Source: Escherichia phage vB_EcoM_G9062. From it: DNA of 64,000 bases. Under the pieces are notes generated by a model, which was not told the origin of the DNA, did no database searches, and was given only the letters and a program-made list of their open reading frames with translations. Location of the stretch: the sequence record NC_054920.1; one strand, given 5' to 3'. Within the stretch, counting starts at the first letter, position 1, and every line of letters starts with the position of its first letter. Positions 14,721 to 23,003 of this stretch are shown here, one piece after another. A program made the translations under genes and the position numbers.

Positions 14721-15685
14721 TGTATTCTTTAGAGGAATTTAATAATCAAGCAATAAACGCAGATTTCCAACGTAATAATATGTTTAGCTGCGTTTTTGCG
14801 ACAACTCCATCAACTAAAAGCTCTTCGTTGATAAGTTCAATTAGCAACTTTTCTTATAATAACTTGGGTCTAAATTCAGACTGGTTAGGATTATCTCAAG
14901 GCGATATTAATCAGGGAATTACCACGCTAATTACTGCTGGCACACAAAAACTGATAAGAAAATCAGGGGTTAGTAAATATCTTATTGGTGCCATGAGTCA
15001 ACGTACAGTTCAAAGTTTATTGGGCTCATTTACAGTTGGTACATATTTAATTGACTTCTTTAATATGGCATATAATTCATCTGGATTGATGATATACTCT
15101 GTAAAAATGCCAGAGAATAGATTATCCTATGAAACTGACTGGAATTATAACTCTCCTAATATTCGTATAACTGGGAGAGAATTGGACCCTTTGGTTATTT
15201 CATTTAGAATGGATTCAGAAGCTTGTAACTATCGTGCGATGCAAGACTGGGTTAACGCTGTTCAAGACCCAGTAACTGGACTGCGTGCTTTGCCACAGGA
15301 TGTCGAGGCAGATATTCAGGTTAATCTTCATGCTCGTAATGGATTACCTCATACTGCGGTGATGTTCACCGGATGCATTCCAGTGTCAGTGAGCGCTCCT
15401 GAGTTATCATATGATGGAGATAACCAAATAACTACATTTGATGTTACTTTTGCGTATAGAGTCATGCAGGCTGGGTCGGTTGATAGACAAGCTGCGCTTG
15501 AGTGGCTTGAATCTGCTGCTATAAATGGCATTCAAAGTGTTCTCGGAAATAGTGGAGGTGTTACTGGATTATCTAATTCGCTTTCACGACTTAGTAGATT
15601 AGGGGGAACTGCAGGAAGCATTTCAAATATTAATACTATGACAGGAATTGTCAATTCGCAAAGTAAAATATTAGGAGCAATATAA
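14720..15685 (+). CDS. 54: Tail tube initiator gp54
   Basis: 321 aa; ATGA-type junction with gene 48. Confidence 0.92.
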   Translation: MYSLEEFNNQAINADFQRNNMFSCVFATTPSTKSSSLISSISNFSYNNLGLNSDWLGLSQGDINQGITTLITAGTQKLIRKSGVSKYLIGAMSQRTVQSLLGSFTVGTYLIDFFNMAYNSSGLMIYSVKMPENRLSYETDWNYNSPNIRITGRELDPLVISFRMDSEACNYRAMQDWVNAVQDPVTGLRALPQDVEADIQVNLHARNGLPHTAVMFTGCIPVSVSAPELSYDGDNQITTFDVTFAYRVMQAGSVDRQAALEWLESAAINGIQSVLGNSGGVTGLSNSLSRLSRLGGTAGSISNINTMTGIVNSQSKILGAI

Positions 15686-15689
15686 CAAT

Positions 15690-15707
15690 GGGGACCGAAA
15701 GGTCCCC
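15690..15707 (+). terminator. Terminator after gene 54
   Basis: ggggacc-gaaa-ggtcccc then atattttattt. Confidence 0.55.
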
Positions 15708-15712
15708 ATATT

Positions 15713-16003
15713 TTATTTACGGAATGAAATAAAAGCAGCAACTGAAGCAACAGAGGTTTCTTCAATATAAACCTCAATTTTTACCGGAGCTTCTGACTCA
15801 AATTTACCTGTTACTACACCTTGGAAAATACTTTCAGTCTGTTCTGGCTTTGAAAAATTTTCAGAAGGAAAAATTCCGAACTTTTTATCTGTTCCAAAAA
15901 TTTTGATAAATTCATCATAAACTGCTTCATTAAAAGCGTTATTCCTGCTGATAACGCCTTCAACTACAAGTTCTTGACCTAAAAAGCGTAAAGAAGATTT
16001 CAT
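15713..16003 (-). CDS. alt.-3: Alt.-3-like small protein
   Basis: 96-aa ORF just downstream of the early promoter copy A. Confidence 0.7.
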   Translation of the reverse strand: MKSSLRFLGQELVVEGVISRNNAFNEAVYDEFIKIFGTDKKFGIFPSENFSKPEQTESIFQGVVTGKFESEAPVKIEVYIEETSVASVAAFISFRK

Positions 16004-16010
16004 TTTGTGT

Positions 16011-16064
16011 TCCTCATGTTATGTCAGTAAGACTACTATAACACAACACGAGGGACTTGTAAAC
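16011..16064 (-). promoter_or_regulatory. Early promoter plus leader, copy A of a 54-bp exact repeat
   Basis: Minus strand: GTTTAC, 17 nt, gTTATAGT, leader with SD gaggaac; identical to 31874-31927. Confidence 0.6.
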
Positions 16065-18121
16065 TACATTTTGAACTTTTTAGACATTCCGTTGATGTTA
16101 ACCAAAGAAGCTAAGATTTGAGAAACTTCGCTTTCCTCTTCTTTTGATTCTTCTACAAGGAATTGATTAAATCCAGCCATTGGACGAACTTCACCAGTTT
16201 CCATTAGATGGTCGCCATCATATACTGATTCTTCTAATTGTTCAGAAGGAGGAACGATTGTACCTTCGATTAGATACTTGTTATAAGCAGTTTCTTTCAT
16301 AAAGTAAGTACTTACTTTATTAATCTTCAGTAAAATTCCACGTGGTAGAATAACTTCAGCTTCTGACGGAAATCCTGATAAATGACCCGGAACGATAACT
16401 TTGATTCGCTCAGCTCCTTTAATTACCATACCCACGCTAGTTTCAGCATCTTCATTAGCATATGTAGAATGACTACCCATATGCATCAAATCTTCTGCAT
16501 CAACGGAACCTTCTCCTTCACCAGAAAATACTGCGCCGGAATCATCTAGAGCCATATAGTTTTTACCATGCTCACCGAAGATATTTGGTTTAAGCGATGT
16601 GGATACGAAGTTCTTGAAATAGAACATTTTATTTTCAATGTTATGACGCAAAGTTTTAAAGGTAACTTCTTGTCCACGGTAAAGTGTAGTTCCTGGAGGA
16701 AGAACTGAACCTTTAGCGAATGCAGAATCAAGCGTCTCAATATGTTTAATAGCTCGTTCCATATATTCTTCACGGGTAGAATCTGGTTTACCCAAAAGGA
16801 ACGAGTTCATTTCAACATATGAATCTGCACAATAATCTTCAATTACATCAGATTCAGCTTGAGTTAATCCTTTTGGAGTTACTTCAGTGCTTGCGTATTC
16901 ATATGCCTGAGCAGCAGATTCATTAATCAATTTATAAATGCCATTCATGACAAATTGAATAATAGCTGTCTTTTCATCTGGCGTAGCTTTAGAACCTTTA
17001 ACCAAATCATTGATAATTTTCTTAATAACATCAAAGCTATTAGAAATATTAATATCAGCAAGATCGCTTAAAATTTTATCAGTCTTATAATCAAAGAATT
17101 CTTTATTCTTTAAATATTCTTGAGAACCTTGATATGTTATATCGCTCTGTAACTTGATAGATGGATCACGTAAACGTGCATGGGCTAATGCAATATGATT
17201 TCGGAAGCTTTCGAGTTCATAATCACTAGATTTAAAACGAGAAGCGCTTCTCATACCGCCTATAGCTCCTTTGCTGAAGTTTGAACCAATTTGAATAACG
17301 CCAGAGTTCATTGGTCCTTCTGCTTTATACACCGGAACTTTAGATTCAAACTCTTGATATTTCTTAGCAGCGAAGCTATCACCCTGAAGTGAAGCATCAA
17401 CAGTAGAATATTGAGCTTGTGCTGCTAATCGACGACTAATTTTAGTTTTTTGAATAACAGCTTGATCCGTGCGCTTATCATTTTCTAAAGCAATAGAAGC
17501 AGCAACAGCGACAGCTTTAGGAACAGCATTACCTGTTTTAACATCTACATAAACATCACCGACCTTCGATTCAACTTTTGTGAATAACTCAGTTGAAATA
17601 GGAGGTACACCTGGAATGTCTTCTAAATTGGCATTTTTACGGTAAACCATAATATATGCATACTTTTTATCATAGTCCCAGATTTCCTTTAAAAGAACAT
17701 ATCGACCTGCTCCTTTAGTACGTACTAAACGGTCAGCAATAACTTGCATTTGACGAGCAGCGCCATTTGTTTTACTCTTTAGTACGCGGAATAAGCATGC
17801 ATCAATTTTATACTGTTTCATTGTTTGAAGAGCAGTATCAAAAACAGCGTTAATGACGCCAATTGGATTTCCACCCAAGTTTCTAAGTTTAACCAGTGAT
17901 AATTTCTCGTTGACACCTATCATTACGATATGCATCATTTTATCGCCCGGCTTAACGTTTTTATTTGTATCACCTCCAGAGGTGTATGTACAAAATCTAA
18001 ATCCAGGAAGCACGCTTTCTTCGCCGGCTTGAATAGCAAAAATTTGAGGTATTTTATGCTTAGGATTTAAGTTAACAACCGGCGCCGAAGCGCCGTCAAA
18101 TAATTCTGTAATAAGTTCCAT
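16064..18121 (-). CDS. Alt-like ADP-ribosyltransferase paralog (685 aa)
   Basis: Shares N-terminal and C-terminal regions with alt incl. TLYRGQ, YFKNFVSTSL, EAEVILPRG; central region divergent. Confidence 0.85.
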   Translation of the reverse strand: MELITELFDGASAPVVNLNPKHKIPQIFAIQAGEESVLPGFRFCTYTSGGDTNKNVKPGDKMMHIVMIGVNEKLSLVKLRNLGGNPIGVINAVFDTALQTMKQYKIDACLFRVLKSKTNGAARQMQVIADRLVRTKGAGRYVLLKEIWDYDKKYAYIMVYRKNANLEDIPGVPPISTELFTKVESKVGDVYVDVKTGNAVPKAVAVAASIALENDKRTDQAVIQKTKISRRLAAQAQYSTVDASLQGDSFAAKKYQEFESKVPVYKAEGPMNSGVIQIGSNFSKGAIGGMRSASRFKSSDYELESFRNHIALAHARLRDPSIKLQSDITYQGSQEYLKNKEFFDYKTDKILSDLADINISNSFDVIKKIINDLVKGSKATPDEKTAIIQFVMNGIYKLINESAAQAYEYASTEVTPKGLTQAESDVIEDYCADSYVEMNSFLLGKPDSTREEYMERAIKHIETLDSAFAKGSVLPPGTTLYRGQEVTFKTLRHNIENKMFYFKNFVSTSLKPNIFGEHGKNYMALDDSGAVFSGEGEGSVDAEDLMHMGSHSTYANEDAETSVGMVIKGAERIKVIVPGHLSGFPSEAEVILPRGILLKINKVSTYFMKETAYNKYLIEGTIVPPSEQLEESVYDGDHLMETGEVRPMAGFNQFLVEESKEEESEVSQILASLVNINGMSKKFKM

Positions 18122-18124
18122 GAT

Positions 18125-20173
18125 TTATCCTTGAACGAACTTGTAAGGCATGTTTGCAATATCTATGCAAGACGCAATAATTCCAAGAGATGATTCTACT
18201 TTCTGTTTAACATTTGATGAAACAAATGATGCAAAGTCAACTCTATCTTCTATATCACCTGTCATTGTAACCAATTCACCAGTTTCCATTAAATGGTCTC
18301 CGTCATAGATTACCGATTCGGTGAGTTCTTCTGTGGTCATAACTTCAGCTTGAATAAGCTTGTTGTTAGTTTTAACTGTTCCATCATTGTAAGATGCATC
18401 GGTTATTTTATTAACTTTGACCATTAATCCACGTGGCAAAATGACTTCCATTTCATTTGAAGGTGCTAAACTTCCACCGGGTAAAACAACATTGACCTTA
18501 TCAGCCCCAGTAATAACCCATCCAATTCCAACTAAATTATCGCTAGAATTTACTAGTCCTTCATCAGTTTTATCAATAGAAACACTTAGACGCTTTTCGT
18601 CTGGTAAAACACCTACAGATGAATCAGTCATCCAAGTACCAAAAATATTTGGATATAATGATGTTGACACAAAGTTTCTAAAATAAAAAACTCGATTTTT
18701 TACCATTGCTTCATATATTGAAGGTAACATTCGTTGTGAACGATACAAAGTAATACCTTTTGGTAATCGTTCACCATTTTTAAAGGCTGAATCTAAATTA
18801 TCAATAGCTTTTTCTATGTCAGATGCTGTCAAAATACTTGTACGCTCATCTGGATTATATAATCCCAAAAGAGCATTATTTATATCTACATATCCTGAAC
18901 CTACGTATTCACGAATTCCGCGTTTTTGCGCCGGTGTGTATTTAGATGAATCTTTATTTTCGACTATAGGATGTAATGACCATCCAGCTGTAAGAGCATA
19001 TCCACGTAATTCTCTTCGAATAATCTTTGTTTTTATTGCATTCCAAGAATTTTGTACTAACTCATTTGCAGCATCTTGGTTTAAATGCGAATGTTTGTTA
19101 ATATTTCTTTCAAACCAAGCACCTTTATATTTTTCTAAAGTATCATCGACGATAGAAGCAATAGTTTCTAAAGTTTTTATTGAAGTAATAGATTCTTTTC
19201 GTAATCTTTCTAAAGCTTTATTTTTTATTTCTGTATTAACATCAGATTCTTTATCTTCAGGAATTATAGAAGCTTCTCTGAATGCCATTCCAGCTGTAAC
19301 ACTATTAAGAGCATTCTCTAATGCAAATCCTGAAGTAGAAATAACAGTTAATTCGTTAGCATCGGAAATTAAAGGCGCATCAGCGGGTTTATTTAATTCT
19401 GCTGCTGAAGCCTCAAATTTTTGAAACATCGGTGTTTCAAATCTAGAAGATTCCAATGATTGACTTTGCGCAATTGCTCTACGGGAAATTTTAACTTTAA
19501 CGATTACAGCTTGGTCAGAACGTTTATCATTTTCTTGTGCAATAGATGCTGCAATTGCCTCATTTTTAGTTACTTGAGCTCCAGTATCTTTATTGATATA
19601 AACATCACCGACCTTCGATTCAACTTTAGTAAAGAGCTCGGTACTAATTTCTGGAACTCCTGGAATGTCTTCTAGTGATACATTTTTGCGATGTATAAGA
19701 ATATATGCATACTTTTTATCATAATCCCAGAGTTCCTTAAGAAGGACGTATCTGCCGCCTGAACGACTACGGATAAGTCTATCAGCAATAACTTGAATTT
19801 GTCGAGCTTGACCAGCGGTTTTAGACTTAAGAATACGGAGCATACAAGCATCAATTTTATATTGACGCATTGTTTGCATTGCAACAGTAAAAACTGAATT
19901 GATATAATTAATTGGGCTTGGCCCAAGACCTTTCAATTTAGCAATTGAACCTTTAGCGGTTAATGTAAAAGGAACAATATGCATCATTTTATCGCCCATT
20001 TTTAAATCGCGATTAGTATCACCTCCAGATGTATAGGTACATAAACGAAAGCCTGGCTGTTCAATTGCATCATCAACGTGAACTGAAAAAATTTGCGGTA
20101 TTTTCTTCTTTGGATTTAAGTTTGTAATCGGAAGAGTAGTATCTTCGTCAAATAATTCTGTAATGAGTTCCAT
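18125..20173 (-). CDS. alt: Alt ADP-ribosyltransferase, capsid-packaged
   Basis: 682 aa from second Met; TLYRSQ, YFRNFVSTSL, EMEVILPRG motifs (R-S-E type). Confidence 0.85.
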   Translation of the reverse strand: MELITELFDEDTTLPITNLNPKKKIPQIFSVHVDDAIEQPGFRLCTYTSGGDTNRDLKMGDKMMHIVPFTLTAKGSIAKLKGLGPSPINYINSVFTVAMQTMRQYKIDACMLRILKSKTAGQARQIQVIADRLIRSRSGGRYVLLKELWDYDKKYAYILIHRKNVSLEDIPGVPEISTELFTKVESKVGDVYINKDTGAQVTKNEAIAASIAQENDKRSDQAVIVKVKISRRAIAQSQSLESSRFETPMFQKFEASAAELNKPADAPLISDANELTVISTSGFALENALNSVTAGMAFREASIIPEDKESDVNTEIKNKALERLRKESITSIKTLETIASIVDDTLEKYKGAWFERNINKHSHLNQDAANELVQNSWNAIKTKIIRRELRGYALTAGWSLHPIVENKDSSKYTPAQKRGIREYVGSGYVDINNALLGLYNPDERTSILTASDIEKAIDNLDSAFKNGERLPKGITLYRSQRMLPSIYEAMVKNRVFYFRNFVSTSLYPNIFGTWMTDSSVGVLPDEKRLSVSIDKTDEGLVNSSDNLVGIGWVITGADKVNVVLPGGSLAPSNEMEVILPRGLMVKVNKITDASYNDGTVKTNNKLIQAEVMTTEELTESVIYDGDHLMETGELVTMTGDIEDRVDFASFVSSNVKQKVESSLGIIASCIDIANMPYKFVQG

Positions 20174-20210
20174 CATATCCTCTCTAGTGTTTATTCTATT
20201 TATAAAATTA

Positions 20211-20226
20211 AAGGCCCGAAGGCCTT
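20211..20226 (-). terminator. GC hairpin between the ligase operon and alt
   Basis: aaggcc-cgaa-ggcctt with T-rich flank on the minus strand. Confidence 0.4.
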
Positions 20227-20414
20227 TAATAATCTATTGGTAAGAGAGTACGGTATATTTCAAACTTTGGACCTTTTTCATAGGCATCAAATGTTTCTGT
20301 GAATTTATTATAAGCATATGCATCTACAAATTCGAGAATGACTTGTGATACAGAAGTAGAAACATCTCCACCTTCTTTTTGAGCAATGACAATTGTTTCT
20401 AAGTAAGCTTTCAT
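20226..20414 (-). CDS. Hypothetical 62-aa protein
   Basis: ATG start overlapping the ligase stop. Confidence 0.55.
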   Translation of the reverse strand: MKAYLETIVIAQKEGGDVSTSVSQVILEFVDAYAYNKFTETFDAYEKGPKFEIYRTLLPIDY

Positions 20415-21874
20415 AGACCAGTTACCTCATGAAAATCACCAAATACATCCTCGAATGTATTAGCTTTAGTTTTATCTTCACGTAAACGAATCGCAATCGG
20501 AAGAAATAATTTAACGTAATCAGTGCGGCCATCAGATTTTAACCAACCGTTGCATTCGCACTCTAGAATTTTTCCAATATAATAATTTTGGTTTTCCATA
20601 ATGCGAGTACGGTCAAGTTCATGCGATTTTACACCGGCTTTATCTTTTAAGCCTGAACCAGCATTTACTTTAATTTTTCCACACTCTGACTCAAGAATAA
20701 ATCCACCTGCTTTAGTAGGGTCTTTACGGTGAGGATAAATTCCTACAATTTTTAAATCAACATCAATTACTTCTTTAAATTTATAGAGATTTTTTGAACG
20801 AGCATTTTCCCATAATCCATCGATATTTTTGAGAATAATACCTTCAAGACCTTGGTCAATATACTTTTTATAAATTACCTTAGCTTCATCTAGGTTATTT
20901 ACTACCTGGTTTTCAATTAAAATTACTTTATCATATCCCGATGTCATTTGTTCTAGTTTAGAAAAACGTACATCATATTTTAAACGAAACGCTGGAAGAC
21001 CGTATATTTCTACCAACGGGACATAATCCCAGACCTGAAACTTCATACATTGAGCTTCTTTTTCAGAAATGGTTCCTTTTAAGGATTTATTGGCGATTCC
21101 ATTAGAAGTAGTACGAGATTCCGCTACTTCGGCGAATTCTTTGGCTTTACTAATTTCAGGATAAGCATCAAAAAGAAAATCTAGGCCTTCTGGTTCCTTT
21201 TTAACTTGCTCATGGTATACCAATTCGCCATCAATTAACACACCTTCTGGATGAATCTGGCGGGCTTCAGCAGTCATTTTGATTAACTCTTCCTTAAGAA
21301 GATCTAATCCTAGATATTCATTACCAGCTCGTGATAAAAGACGAACATCATCTAATTCATCGCCTCGGACTTCAGCAAAACACCGAGCTCCATCTGCTTT
21401 TAACTGCGCAAAGGCTGGAAACTTGATATTCTTATTAATGCCTTTTTCATCATAAGAACTTGCAAGCATTTGAGGTTGTTCAGGAATTAAACCTGGCCAA
21501 ACTTTATTTGCAATAGATACTGAAGCACCGCATTCAAGGTCTCGCATCATAACTCGACGCAAAACTTCAACATCATCCTTTTTACCATCAGTGATATATC
21601 CAGTTAATTCCTCAATTGCAGCATTTCCAGTCAATTTCCGAGTAGCTAACGTGAATTCAATGAAGTCAAGCATATCGGTAATAGTCAGCATTCCAAAACT
21701 CTGGGTAGCAATACCCGGTTTAGGCCATTTCTTGATATAATACTGTAACCCACGAGAATAAGTCAGACGATATACTCGTTTAAGCAATTCATTATCTTTA
21801 TTCTTTTCAAGAATTGCTTGCTTCTGCTTAGTTGAACCAATAGATGCTATTTCGTTCAGAATTTTAAGAATCAT
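20411..21874 (-). CDS. 30: ATP-dependent DNA ligase
   Basis: 487 aa, same length as T4 DNA ligase. Confidence 0.93.
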   Translation of the reverse strand: MILKILNEIASIGSTKQKQAILEKNKDNELLKRVYRLTYSRGLQYYIKKWPKPGIATQSFGMLTITDMLDFIEFTLATRKLTGNAAIEELTGYITDGKKDDVEVLRRVMMRDLECGASVSIANKVWPGLIPEQPQMLASSYDEKGINKNIKFPAFAQLKADGARCFAEVRGDELDDVRLLSRAGNEYLGLDLLKEELIKMTAEARQIHPEGVLIDGELVYHEQVKKEPEGLDFLFDAYPEISKAKEFAEVAESRTTSNGIANKSLKGTISEKEAQCMKFQVWDYVPLVEIYGLPAFRLKYDVRFSKLEQMTSGYDKVILIENQVVNNLDEAKVIYKKYIDQGLEGIILKNIDGLWENARSKNLYKFKEVIDVDLKIVGIYPHRKDPTKAGGFILESECGKIKVNAGSGLKDKAGVKSHELDRTRIMENQNYYIGKILECECNGWLKSDGRTDYVKLFLPIAIRLREDKTKANTFEDVFGDFHEVTGL

Positions 21875-22140
21875 TGTTCATCCTTTAGAGTTTGGTTTAC
21901 AGCTCTATTATAAATCAATTCATCATTAAGCTCAGTCAAAGACCTGTGGTACGTGGTTCTAACTTTATTTCCTTGCATCCAGTGCTTGACGTAAATGAAA
22001 CCTTGCTCTACACATTTTTTAAAAATTCGTTCGTCTTTTTGAGCTCGGAATTCTGGATTGCATCTAAAAAATTGATTTACGTGACCGTAATCACGTGTAG
22101 TATTACCTTCATTTTCATAAATAGTGTGAACAACAAACAT
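21871..22140 (-). CDS. Hypothetical protein (30.1 position)
   Basis: 89-aa ORF, overlapping stop/start junctions. Confidence 0.6.
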   Translation of the reverse strand: MFVVHTIYENEGNTTRDYGHVNQFFRCNPEFRAQKDERIFKKCVEQGFIYVKHWMQGNKVRTTYHRSLTELNDELIYNRAVNQTLKDEQ

Positions 22141-23003
22141 TAGAATGCTCCTTGGAAAATATTATCACCACTAGTAAATCTATTAAAATATCCTGCATCA
22201 CCAGGCTTAGTATAACTCCACGTATGGAATGGATTCATATGATACGGGTGTGTATAATATGGATTATATGGATGTGTATAATATGGATTATACGGATTAA
22301 ATTCAGGAGTTCTCCAGGTAGTGTTCCAACGAAAAGAATCGTTTTTAACCATCTTCTCAATTACATCTTTTATAGCTTTTTCACTATCAAAACTTTCTTT
22401 ATTTTCCTTCGGTGAAAAAAGCTTATTTTCTACATCATTCCATGTATAAACTCGCTGCGCAGTTTTTGGAATATTGTCACGCTCTCCTCGAGCCATCCAA
22501 TAAACAGGAACATTTAATATTTCACTCGCATGATCGCAGTGGTGGGCGAGATCGTCAATATAACAAATTACATTATATTTCTCTTTTGCCTTTTTGAATA
22601 ACTCTTCTTTTGAAGAATCATGACCACACATCATTACTTCTGAGAAGGCACCAGGAAAAAGAGCATTCAAATTAAATTGACGATTCAGCAGAGCGTCAAT
22701 AGAATCACCCAATGCTGTAACAGCTACAAAATTATAATCTTCTTTTAATTTGTTAATTACACACAGGGCATCTTTATATGGAGACAAGTAACGAATAAAA
22801 TCTGAACGATTGTATTTTTCAATTAACTTGACGCCAAGTTCTTCATCACAATTAAAGAGTTTACCAGGAGAAATAAATTTCTCATCTTGGATCATTTTTA
22901 AAATATGTTCTAACGGAAGATTATATTTCTGAGCAAAATAAGGAAGGCCTGATTGCCAGCTTAAACATACTCCATCAATATCAGTTAAAATAGTAGGCTT
23001 CAT
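22140..23003 (-). CDS. HAD-superfamily phosphatase-like protein (30.2 position)
   Basis: N-terminal DxDGV-type motif (LTDIDGVCL); C-terminal Tyr/Pro-rich repeat NPYYTHPY x2. Confidence 0.65.
   Translation of the reverse strand: MKPTILTDIDGVCLSWQSGLPYFAQKYNLPLEHILKMIQDEKFISPGKLFNCDEELGVKLIEKYNRSDFIRYLSPYKDALCVINKLKEDYNFVAVTALGDSIDALLNRQFNLNALFPGAFSEVMMCGHDSSKEELFKKAKEKYNVICYIDDLAHHCDHASEILNVPVYWMARGERDNIPKTAQRVYTWNDVENKLFSPKENKESFDSEKAIKDVIEKMVKNDSFRWNTTWRTPEFNPYNPYYTHPYNPYYTHPYHMNPFHTWSYTKPGDAGYFNRFTSGDNIFQGAF
22245..22295 (-). repeat. 24-bp in-frame tandem duplication inside the HAD-like gene
   Basis: gtgtgtataatatggattata repeated with 1-2 mismatches; encodes NPYYTHPY twice. Confidence 0.7.

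Follow-up and report, generated by a model that had tools for sequence, protein, structure and literature searches.

The window analysed here, a 64,000-nucleotide stretch of Escherichia phage vB_EcoM_G9062 (sequence record NC_054920.1), is part of a T4-like (Tequatrovirus) genome and carries two long minus-strand open reading frames (ORFs; 18125-20176 and 16064-18121) that encode Alt-type ADP-ribosyltransferases (ARTs). The region is the standard Tequatrovirus alt locus in its complete form, in which a T4-type alt gene is followed by an ancient full-length paralogue, alt2. The arrangement is a common gene pair that is already known and annotated, and is no discovery; its remaining interest lies in Alt2, which is old and strongly conserved and for which no functional study was found in the literature. 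The pair is located between DNA ligase/alt.1 and alt.-3/gene 54 in an orientation opposite to that of the baseplate genes, which is the position characteristic of the Alt family. The two genes are divided into the following segments.

18125-20173, minus strand: alt, orthologue of T4 Alt, 682 residues from the ATG at 20173
19466-20173, minus strand: alt, N-domain
18944-19465, minus strand: alt, central helical region
18329-18943, minus strand: alt, ART domain
18125-18328, minus strand: alt, C-terminal tail
16064-18121, minus strand: alt2, full-length paralogue, 685 residues
17417-18121, minus strand: alt2, N-domain
16886-17416, minus strand: alt2, central helical region
16247-16885, minus strand: alt2, ART domain
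16064-16246, minus strand: alt2, C-terminal tail

The stop codon of alt (TAA, 18127-18125) and the start codon of alt2 (ATG, 18121-18119) are separated by three nucleotides (ATC), and the 682- and 685-residue products agree with the original prediction of two minus-strand ORFs of about 685 codons lying 3 nt apart. The two genes share one reading frame (18122-18127, minus strand; TAA, with the codon ATC between the genes). Read-through of the stop codon would yield an Alt-Alt2 fusion, and nothing points to its occurrence. The alt gene opens with two adjoining ATG codons (20173-20178, minus strand; MMELITE...), the first of which, at 20176, gives a 683-residue protein. The second ATG (20173) is the start annotated in T4 and is also favoured by the Shine-Dalgarno spacing (GAGG, then 5 nt). 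According to a review, a seven-residue N-terminal propeptide is removed from Alt, which fits the first ATG if cleavage occurs after ITE.

The product of the upstream gene is identical to T4 Alt (NP_049811) at 675 of 682 residues, central region included. The upstream gene also shares with its T4 counterpart the neighbouring genes (alt.1 and DNA ligase upstream), the position of the late promoter and the catalytic R-S-ExE residues (arginine, serine and glutamate-x-glutamate), and is identified by this match as orthologous to T4 Alt. The downstream gene does not qualify on the same terms (41% identity, no match in the middle). Its product is 98-100% identical to the products of genes named 'ADP-ribosyltransferase Alt2' in Bas35 and Bas37 and of the T2 and T6 genes; the GenBank records of the BASEL phages label the pair 'ADP-ribosyltransferase Alt' and 'ADP-ribosyltransferase Alt2', and the RB14 record names its full-length alt2 gene 'alt.-2'. 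The alt2 genes of Bas35, Bas37, T2, T6 and RB14 are orthologues of the window gene, located at the same position with the same 3-nt spacing.

Alt and Alt2 share their overall architecture, the N-domain, the catalytic motifs and two short protease motifs described below, and differ mainly in the middle. Over the full length, the two proteins are 41% identical (BLASTP, E = 5e-160), a match that chance cannot account for. The identity is 67% in the N-terminal ~235 residues and 37% in the C-terminal ~270 residues that contain the catalytic domain, which bears out the earlier description of shared N-terminal and catalytic regions. Residues ~236-412 give no BLAST match and reach 10-20% identity when an alignment is forced. 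The central region had been described as unrelated over ~250 residues; the lack of sequence and profile similarity was confirmed, but the divergent stretch is ~175 residues long.

The upstream gene is dimorphic in Tequatrovirus. A T4-type allele is found in the window, Bas35 and T4, and the other allele, encoding 697-698 residues, in T2, T6 and Bas37; apart from this difference in alt, the window and Bas35 pairs do not differ substantially from those of T2, T6 and Bas37. The two alleles are ~100% identical over residues 1-240 (window positions 18125-20173 compared with L003, L004 and L005), fall abruptly to 24-62% past residue 240, in the middle and catalytic domain, and climb again at the C-terminus. 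Between the T2/Bas37-type allele and T4 Alt, the middle is 35% and the ART domain 69% identical. The T4-type middle is encoded at at least 90% identity in only 173 phage records, versus 400 for Alt2. The alleles also differ in function: T4 Alt aids T4 in evading Mokosh type I, and plaquing on this defence is restored by T4 Alt and not by the Bas37/T2-type allele (bioRxiv 10.1101/2025.11.20.689424).

Both proteins belong to the Alt family by profile. The phrog_802 profile spans residues 1-682 of Alt (E 7e-264) and 1-685 of Alt2 (E 4e-256), that is, the full length of each. PF03496 (ADPrib_exo_Tox) scores 123.3 bits on Alt and 71.9 bits on Alt2 against a cut-off of 23.4, and the ART domain delimited by Pfam begins at Alt residue 375 and Alt2 residue 416. 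In the annotation precomputed by the source, PF26846 (Tevenvirinae_ADPRT) and PF03496 are listed for a protein 99% identical to the window Alt2, and PF26846 also for proteins 97-100% identical to the window Alt (segment comparisons). NCBIfam holds no family for either protein, a search of the Alt2 sequence against PDB chains gave no match at E <= 1, and an Rfam scan of positions 15000-21000 found nothing. The catalytic residues are located as follows.

18740-18742, minus strand: Alt R478 (TLYRSQ)
18659-18667, minus strand: Alt S503-T-S505 (NFVSTSL)
18446-18454, minus strand: Alt E574-M-E576 (ExE)
16676-16678, minus strand: Alt2 R482 (TLYRGQ)
16595-16603, minus strand: Alt2 S507-T-S509
16355-16363, minus strand: Alt2 E587-A-E589 (ExE)

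The R, STS and ExE residues of both proteins are invariant in a 25-sequence family alignment, and the R, S and ExE columns line up with those of T4 ModA and ModB; aligned with T4 Alt and these two enzymes, the upstream copy lacks no catalytic residue. The three elements had been correctly predicted in both proteins, but the segment then quoted for the glutamates, EVILPRG, holds only the second of them: the ExE motif is EME in Alt and EAE in Alt2, immediately before VILPRG. The loop ahead of ExE differs between the proteins (GGSLAPSNEME in Alt, GHLSGFPSEAE in Alt2). ExE is the arginine-type signature of ADP-ribosyltransferases. By profile, motifs and position, Alt and Alt2 are both placed in the Alt family, as intact R-S-ExE mono-ADP-ribosyltransferases, and since both carry ExE, both probably modify arginines. 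The catalytic core is also common to ModA and ModB, which differ from the Alt family in being early proteins of ~200 residues made after infection and in lacking an Alt-type N-terminal domain, a central region and a processed tail.

Structures of Alt2 (pLDDT 74.6, pTM 0.70; predicted local distance difference test and predicted template modelling score, respectively) and Alt (pLDDT 72.6, pTM 0.55) were predicted with AlphaFold2. Both models share four parts: an α/β N-domain (residues ~15-195) with linker helices, an all-helical centre, the ART domain, and a C-terminal tail of low confidence (pLDDT below 50). The N-domain is regarded as specific to Tevenvirinae and the tail as disordered. The Alt centre is predicted to contain seven helices (residues 248-260, 272-280, 282-294, 306-324, 332-348, 350-361 and 366-405) and the Alt2 centre eight (residues 250-261, 273-284, 286-292, 301-318, 328-338, 340-355, 362-374 and 381-413). 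The two middles are thus predicted as all-helical bundles with a similar helix order. Phage SP18 has a single Alt, and its predicted structure can be aligned with each of the two models over ~660 columns.

In a Foldseek search, the catalytic domain of the Alt2 model matched Vis (4xzj, E 5.7e-7), C3bot, Certhrax, CDTa, VIP2 and iota Ia with a probability of 1.0 and E values of 6e-7 to 2e-4 over about 240-245 aligned columns; the Alt model was searched against viral models. C3-like and binary-toxin ARTs thus resemble the predicted fold of the Alt2 catalytic domain, at a sequence identity of 14-20%. The two-domain toxins (VIP2, iota Ia and CDTa) align with Alt2 over one domain only, with a target-normalised template modelling score of ~0.3. 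A VIP2-like arrangement in which the N-domain would be a second ART fold is not supported, the Foldseek alignments covering one domain, and the N-domain had no PDB match among the matches listed. The routes of delivery differ as well: binary toxins are delivered by a toxin translocon and Alt-family proteins by ejection from the phage head.

The duplication that gave rise to alt and alt2 is old. Synonymous divergence (dS) between the two genes is saturated and equal in the three segments (1.31, 1.31 and 1.35), whereas nonsynonymous divergence (dN) rises from 0.28 in the N-domain to 0.72 in the C-terminal part and 0.94 in the middle. Between the paralogues, constraint is strongest in the N-domain. 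Since synonymous sites are saturated in the N-domain as well, the likeness of the N-domains in the window genome reflects constraint, and recent gene conversion was rejected as its cause in this genome; crossovers within the N-domain do occur in other genomes.

At least four sequence classes of central region can be distinguished in the family, and BLAST finds no link from one class to another.

Class A: T4 Alt, the T2/T6/Bas37 allele, Mosigvirus Alt and the middle Dhakavirus gene
Class B: Alt2 and the last Dhakavirus gene (JS10 type)
Class C: Jiaodavirus Alt
Class D: the first Dhakavirus gene

Salmonella phage vB_SalD_ABTNLS3 (Dhakavirus; L008:12-6124) carries three tandem Alt-like genes of 631, 693 and 707 codons in the order D-A-B, followed by an alt.-3 homologue. 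Because Dhakavirus has the same order, the A-then-B tandem is older than the separation of these genera. A single Alt-like gene is present at the locus in Mosigvirus and in Jiaodavirus. The copy number at the locus ranges from one to at least three across genera, and some Aeromonas phage records have up to four matching places.

A profile-profile comparison of the Alt and Alt2 central regions gave a probability of 2.7%, confined to the last 16 columns, which already lie in the catalytic domain; larger class profiles with secondary structure gave 0.4-0.6% for similarity of the two middles. Sequence cannot settle whether the two regions are homologous. Domain replacement is no likelier an explanation than extreme divergence from one ancestral helical domain. 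Import of the Alt2 centre from another protein family has no support: in the phage collection, the class-B region occurs once per genome and always within an Alt-like gene at this locus. The 'swapped' central domains of the original prediction are likewise not upheld by the old duplication, the equal dS, the confinement of class B to Alt-like genes and the predicted helical nature of both middles.

In some T4-like genomes, a single hybrid gene with an Alt-type N-terminus and the Alt2 middle and catalytic domain lies between alt.1 and alt.-3. Hybrids were observed on metagenome contigs (L011:4001-6061, L012:4001-6055 and L010:5001-7061; proteins P0003-P0006), and the four hybrid proteins show clean single crossovers at four different conserved stretches of the N-domain, at residues ~44-55, 103-111, 175-193 and 219-225. 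The hybrids look like products of unequal recombination between tandem paralogues that collapsed the pair.

alt2 is widespread and strongly conserved. The 4.75-kb region was found at a coverage of at least 80% in 285 phage records, many of them annotated with two Alt-like transferases, and Alt2 is encoded at at least 90% identity in 400 phage records, T2 and T6 included. The distribution of the central region rests on a tblastn search of phage genomes, which returned the same 400 records and 44 distant copies. With the 176-residue central region of Alt2 as query, an exhaustive HMMER search of a library of 1.84 billion representatives gave zero matches, missing even the family of the query, and the class-B central alignment, used in a word-indexed profile search, retrieved two proteins only and missed known positives; both searches are uninformative and, because they missed the Alt2 family itself, their sub-domain negatives are not read as absence. 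A 2010 review of T4-related genomes makes no mention of Alt. Among the window, Bas35, Bas37, T2 and T6 genes, pairwise dN/dS is 0.018-0.046, and the ratio of nonsynonymous to synonymous differences per site (pN/pS) is 0.033 in the N-domain, 0.042 in the middle, 0.027 in the ART domain and 0.040 in the tail. The middle is 97-100% conserved among orthologues, although ~16% of synonymous sites differ (pS 0.16), and the extreme C-terminus (...KF) is conserved as well. Alt2 is under strong purifying selection in every segment, central domain included.

T4 itself lacks most of alt2. A blastn comparison of the T4 locus with the window gave two collinear blocks (96.6% and 94.7% identity) around a gap, with a 9-nt overlap at the junction.

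16084-17773, minus strand: stretch of alt2 missing from T4, ~1,690 bp

The T4 remnant corresponds to the first ~116 codons of alt2 with a frameshift near codon 54: translations of T4 alt.-1 (NP_049810) and alt.-2 (NP_049809) match Alt2 residues 1-54 and 62-116, respectively. The protein families at these two stretches, phrog_23015 and phrog_15247, score 138 and 129 bits on Alt2 versus 78 and 70 bits on Alt. Read from these matches, alt.-1 and alt.-2, which fit Alt2 far better than Alt, are the remnant of alt2 after a 1.69-kb deletion plus a frameshift; the gene is broken in T4 and whole in the window. The T4 record ascribes alt.-1 and alt.-2 to an 'old duplication of the first part of gene alt', and Nolan et al. 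2006 (PMC1524935) likewise describe a duplication of the first part of alt and report that phage 44RR carries a full-length duplicate of alt. The junction of the T4-type deletion occurs in 91 records, environmental isolates among them. The deletion is a natural minority allele, and T4 is the derived exception. The doubt that had been voiced about the upstream copy in T4 therefore falls on the wrong gene, since the upstream copy is intact there and the downstream one is broken. It had also been allowed that an identical intact pair might already be characterised in T4 or T2; the pair is indeed present in T2 and T6 and annotated, but no published function of Alt2 was found.

The expression signals around the pair fit a shared transcript.

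20197-20204, minus strand: T4-type late promoter box TATAAATA, with the alt start codons 20 nt downstream
20209-20227, minus strand: terminator-like hairpin (AAAGGCC-TTCG-GGCCTTT) with a T-rich run, at the end of alt.1 and just before the late promoter
18128-18132, minus strand: alt2 Shine-Dalgarno sequence AAGGA, within the last alt codons and 6 nt ahead of the alt2 ATG

The T4 late promoter consensus is TATAAATA. The sole copy directly upstream of either gene precedes alt, and none lies directly upstream of alt2. Because the window contains 12 matches against 8.9 expected by chance, the promoter argument rests on position and not on count. A second exact TATAAATA lies within alt (18877-18884, minus strand), ~750 nt upstream of alt2, as a chance match or an internal promoter. 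The hairpin was found by reading the sequence and was missed by a consensus scanner; a conserved terminator upstream of alt has been described (Nolan et al. 2006, PMC1524935). The placement of the alt2 Shine-Dalgarno sequence fits co-transcription and coupled translation with alt. The two genes most likely form one late transcription unit that would be read from the late promoter upstream of alt.

Downstream of the pair lie the following neighbouring features.

16035-16063: early-type promoter-like site of alt.-3 (GTTTACA-17-TATAGT)
15713-16003, minus strand: alt.-3 homologue (DUF5498, 96 residues), a neighbour outside the pair
15688-15709: strong bidirectional terminator after alt.-3

C-terminal extensions of T4 Alt.-3 lead to escape from the CmdTAC defence system (PMC11618068), and the Bas37 homologue of alt.-3, bas37_0031, is depleted (log2 -2.7) in one comparison of the HIDEN-SEQ supplement. 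Elsewhere in the window, the gene 30.2 homologue (22140-23003, minus strand, 287 residues) contains a tandem peptide repeat near its C-terminus, with PYNPYYTH occurring twice within ...NPYNPYYTHPYNPYYTHPYHMNPF....

The likely role of Alt2 was considered from what is established for T4 Alt. T4 Alt is a head-core protein of ~40 copies that is trimmed at both ends by the gp21 protease and ejected with the DNA; gp21 recognises the motif L/I-x-E, a short N-terminal propeptide is removed from Alt and the C-terminus is processed too (PMC9026906). T4 Alt ADP-ribosylates Arg265 of the RNA polymerase alpha subunit (PMC2988021). The upstream gene product, being 99% identical to T4 Alt, should also modify this residue. 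Motifs of the gp21 type are present near both ends of both proteins.

20156-20164, minus strand: N-terminal motif of Alt (ITE, residues 4-6)
18284-18292, minus strand: C-terminal motif of Alt (L628-M-E630)
18104-18112, minus strand: N-terminal motif of Alt2 (I4-T-E6; MELITE followed by L), identical to that of Alt
16199-16207, minus strand: C-terminal motif of Alt2 (L639-M-E641), in the family-invariant block YDGDHLMETGE

The L/I-x-E motifs stand at conserved positions in both proteins, and the LME motifs are located where the low-confidence tail begins in both models; the motif itself is very short. We infer that the exact C-terminal site lies near LME. Alt2, like Alt, would be built into the prohead core, where gp21 would trim it after ITE at the N-terminus and near LME at the C-terminus. 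It would then be ejected with the DNA and ADP-ribosylate host proteins ahead of any phage gene expression, and Alt and Alt2 would act on different host proteins. Small injected head-core proteins of T-even phages offer a parallel, in that they carry propeptides removed by gp21, form phage-variable sets and act against host defences; they differ in being non-enzymatic with a 10-19-residue N-terminal capsid-targeting sequence, whereas members of the Alt family are ~76-kDa enzymes processed at both ends.

Insertion data from HIDEN-SEQ bear on the question of targets. In supplement file 8 (bioRxiv 10.1101/2025.11.20.689424), Bas37 Alt2 (bas37_0032) is classed as 'Intermediate' (116 of 164 sites, mean count 44.5) and Bas37 Alt (bas37_0033) as 'Non-essential' (164 of 179 sites, mean count 203.6). 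Insertions in alt2 are under-represented relative to alt, which, in the interpretation made here, suggests that the targets differ. Different targets are suggested by these results and by the failure of the T2/Bas37-type allele to replace T4 Alt against Mokosh, together with the unrelated middles and the 37% identity of catalytic domains with differing loops before ExE. It is reasonably probable that alt and alt2 are co-transcribed and that Alt2 is packaged, trimmed, injected and active on targets of its own, in line with the original suggestion of two injected effectors of different specificity.

Several points weigh against this proposal. alt2 is dispensable in at least some backgrounds, being absent from T4 and from the 91 records with the deletion. 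The packaging role of the N-domain is an assumption, and the central region could serve packing or ejection instead of target choice. The internal late promoter match at 18877-18884 could give alt2 some independent late transcription. The models of both proteins are of only moderate confidence (pLDDT 73-75). Full-text searching of the literature retrieved no paper that uses the name Alt2 for a phage transferase and no published function, and no data on Alt2 in the virion or on its enzymology were found in the literature. Virion proteomics papers on a phage with both genes were not found either, the only such study retrieved being on a Morganella phage with one Alt.

A wider reading is advanced more tentatively. 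Alt2 may be a second virion-delivered enzyme whose class-B middle and catalytic loops steer it to host proteins other than those of Alt, possibly to a defence system, just as T4 Alt counters Mokosh type I, so that the locus would be a modular arsenal. The conserved N-terminal 'delivery' module would double as a recombination handle by which modules that combine specificity and catalysis are exchanged, fused or lost. Such a reading fits the locus because the upstream allele is dimorphic, hybrids of the Alt N-domain with Alt2 exist, and arrays of one to three genes are found across genera.

Two further explanations, each rather unlikely, concern the packaging and the targets of Alt2. Alt2 might be an active transferase that is not packaged and acts late, on host or phage proteins of an already infected cell. 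The L/I-x-E motif is very short and frequent by chance, and no virion data on Alt2 were found in the literature, the case for packaging being made from the shared motifs and the N-domain. However, MELITE and the invariant DGDHLMETGE occupy matching positions in Alt and Alt2, the tail that would be removed from Alt2 is itself under purifying selection (pN/pS 0.040), and alt2 most likely belongs to the late transcription unit of alt. Natural hybrids of the Alt N-domain with Alt2, which replace both genes in some genomes, also fit interchangeable N-domains.

Alternatively, Alt and Alt2 might be redundant, both acting mainly on RNA polymerase alpha Arg265 for dose or back-up, with a middle that has no target role and serves, for example, as a spacer for packing or unfolding. 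Such redundancy, which also has a low probability, would suit the common arginine-specific ExE signature and overall architecture, the all-helical central regions with similar helix order in the models, and the fact that T4 lives without Alt2. It is at odds with catalytic domains that are only 37% identical and differ in the loops before ExE, and with an Alt2 middle that is 97-100% conserved despite a pS of 0.16, which is tighter than a mere spacer. The very long retention of the pair also speaks against redundancy, as do the difference between Alt and Alt2 insertion mutants in Bas37 and the failure of Alt alleles that differ in the middle to replace one another against Mokosh. Decay of the downstream copy into a functionless duplicate, as its breakage into alt.-1 and alt.-2 in T4 and the deletion in 91 records might suggest, is highly improbable and is refuted, as far as sequence can do so, by a dN/dS of 0.02-0.05 in every segment, along with the full-length ORF in about 400 records, the retention of all catalytic residues and the 'Intermediate' essentiality in Bas37.

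The proposal of Alt2 as a packaged, injected enzyme with its own targets thus stands as the preferred reading. T4 Alt serves as the textbook case of an enzyme that enters the cell with phage DNA, yet T4 itself is atypical: most of its close relatives, T2 and T6 included, carry another Alt-type enzyme that is strongly conserved. Should Alt2 be packaged and have targets of its own, two injected enzymes and not one would take part in the immediate-early takeover of the host by ordinary T-even phages, or in their counter-defence. Decades of work on 'alteration' would then have missed half of the typical injected enzymatic load of T-even phages, T4 having lost alt2.

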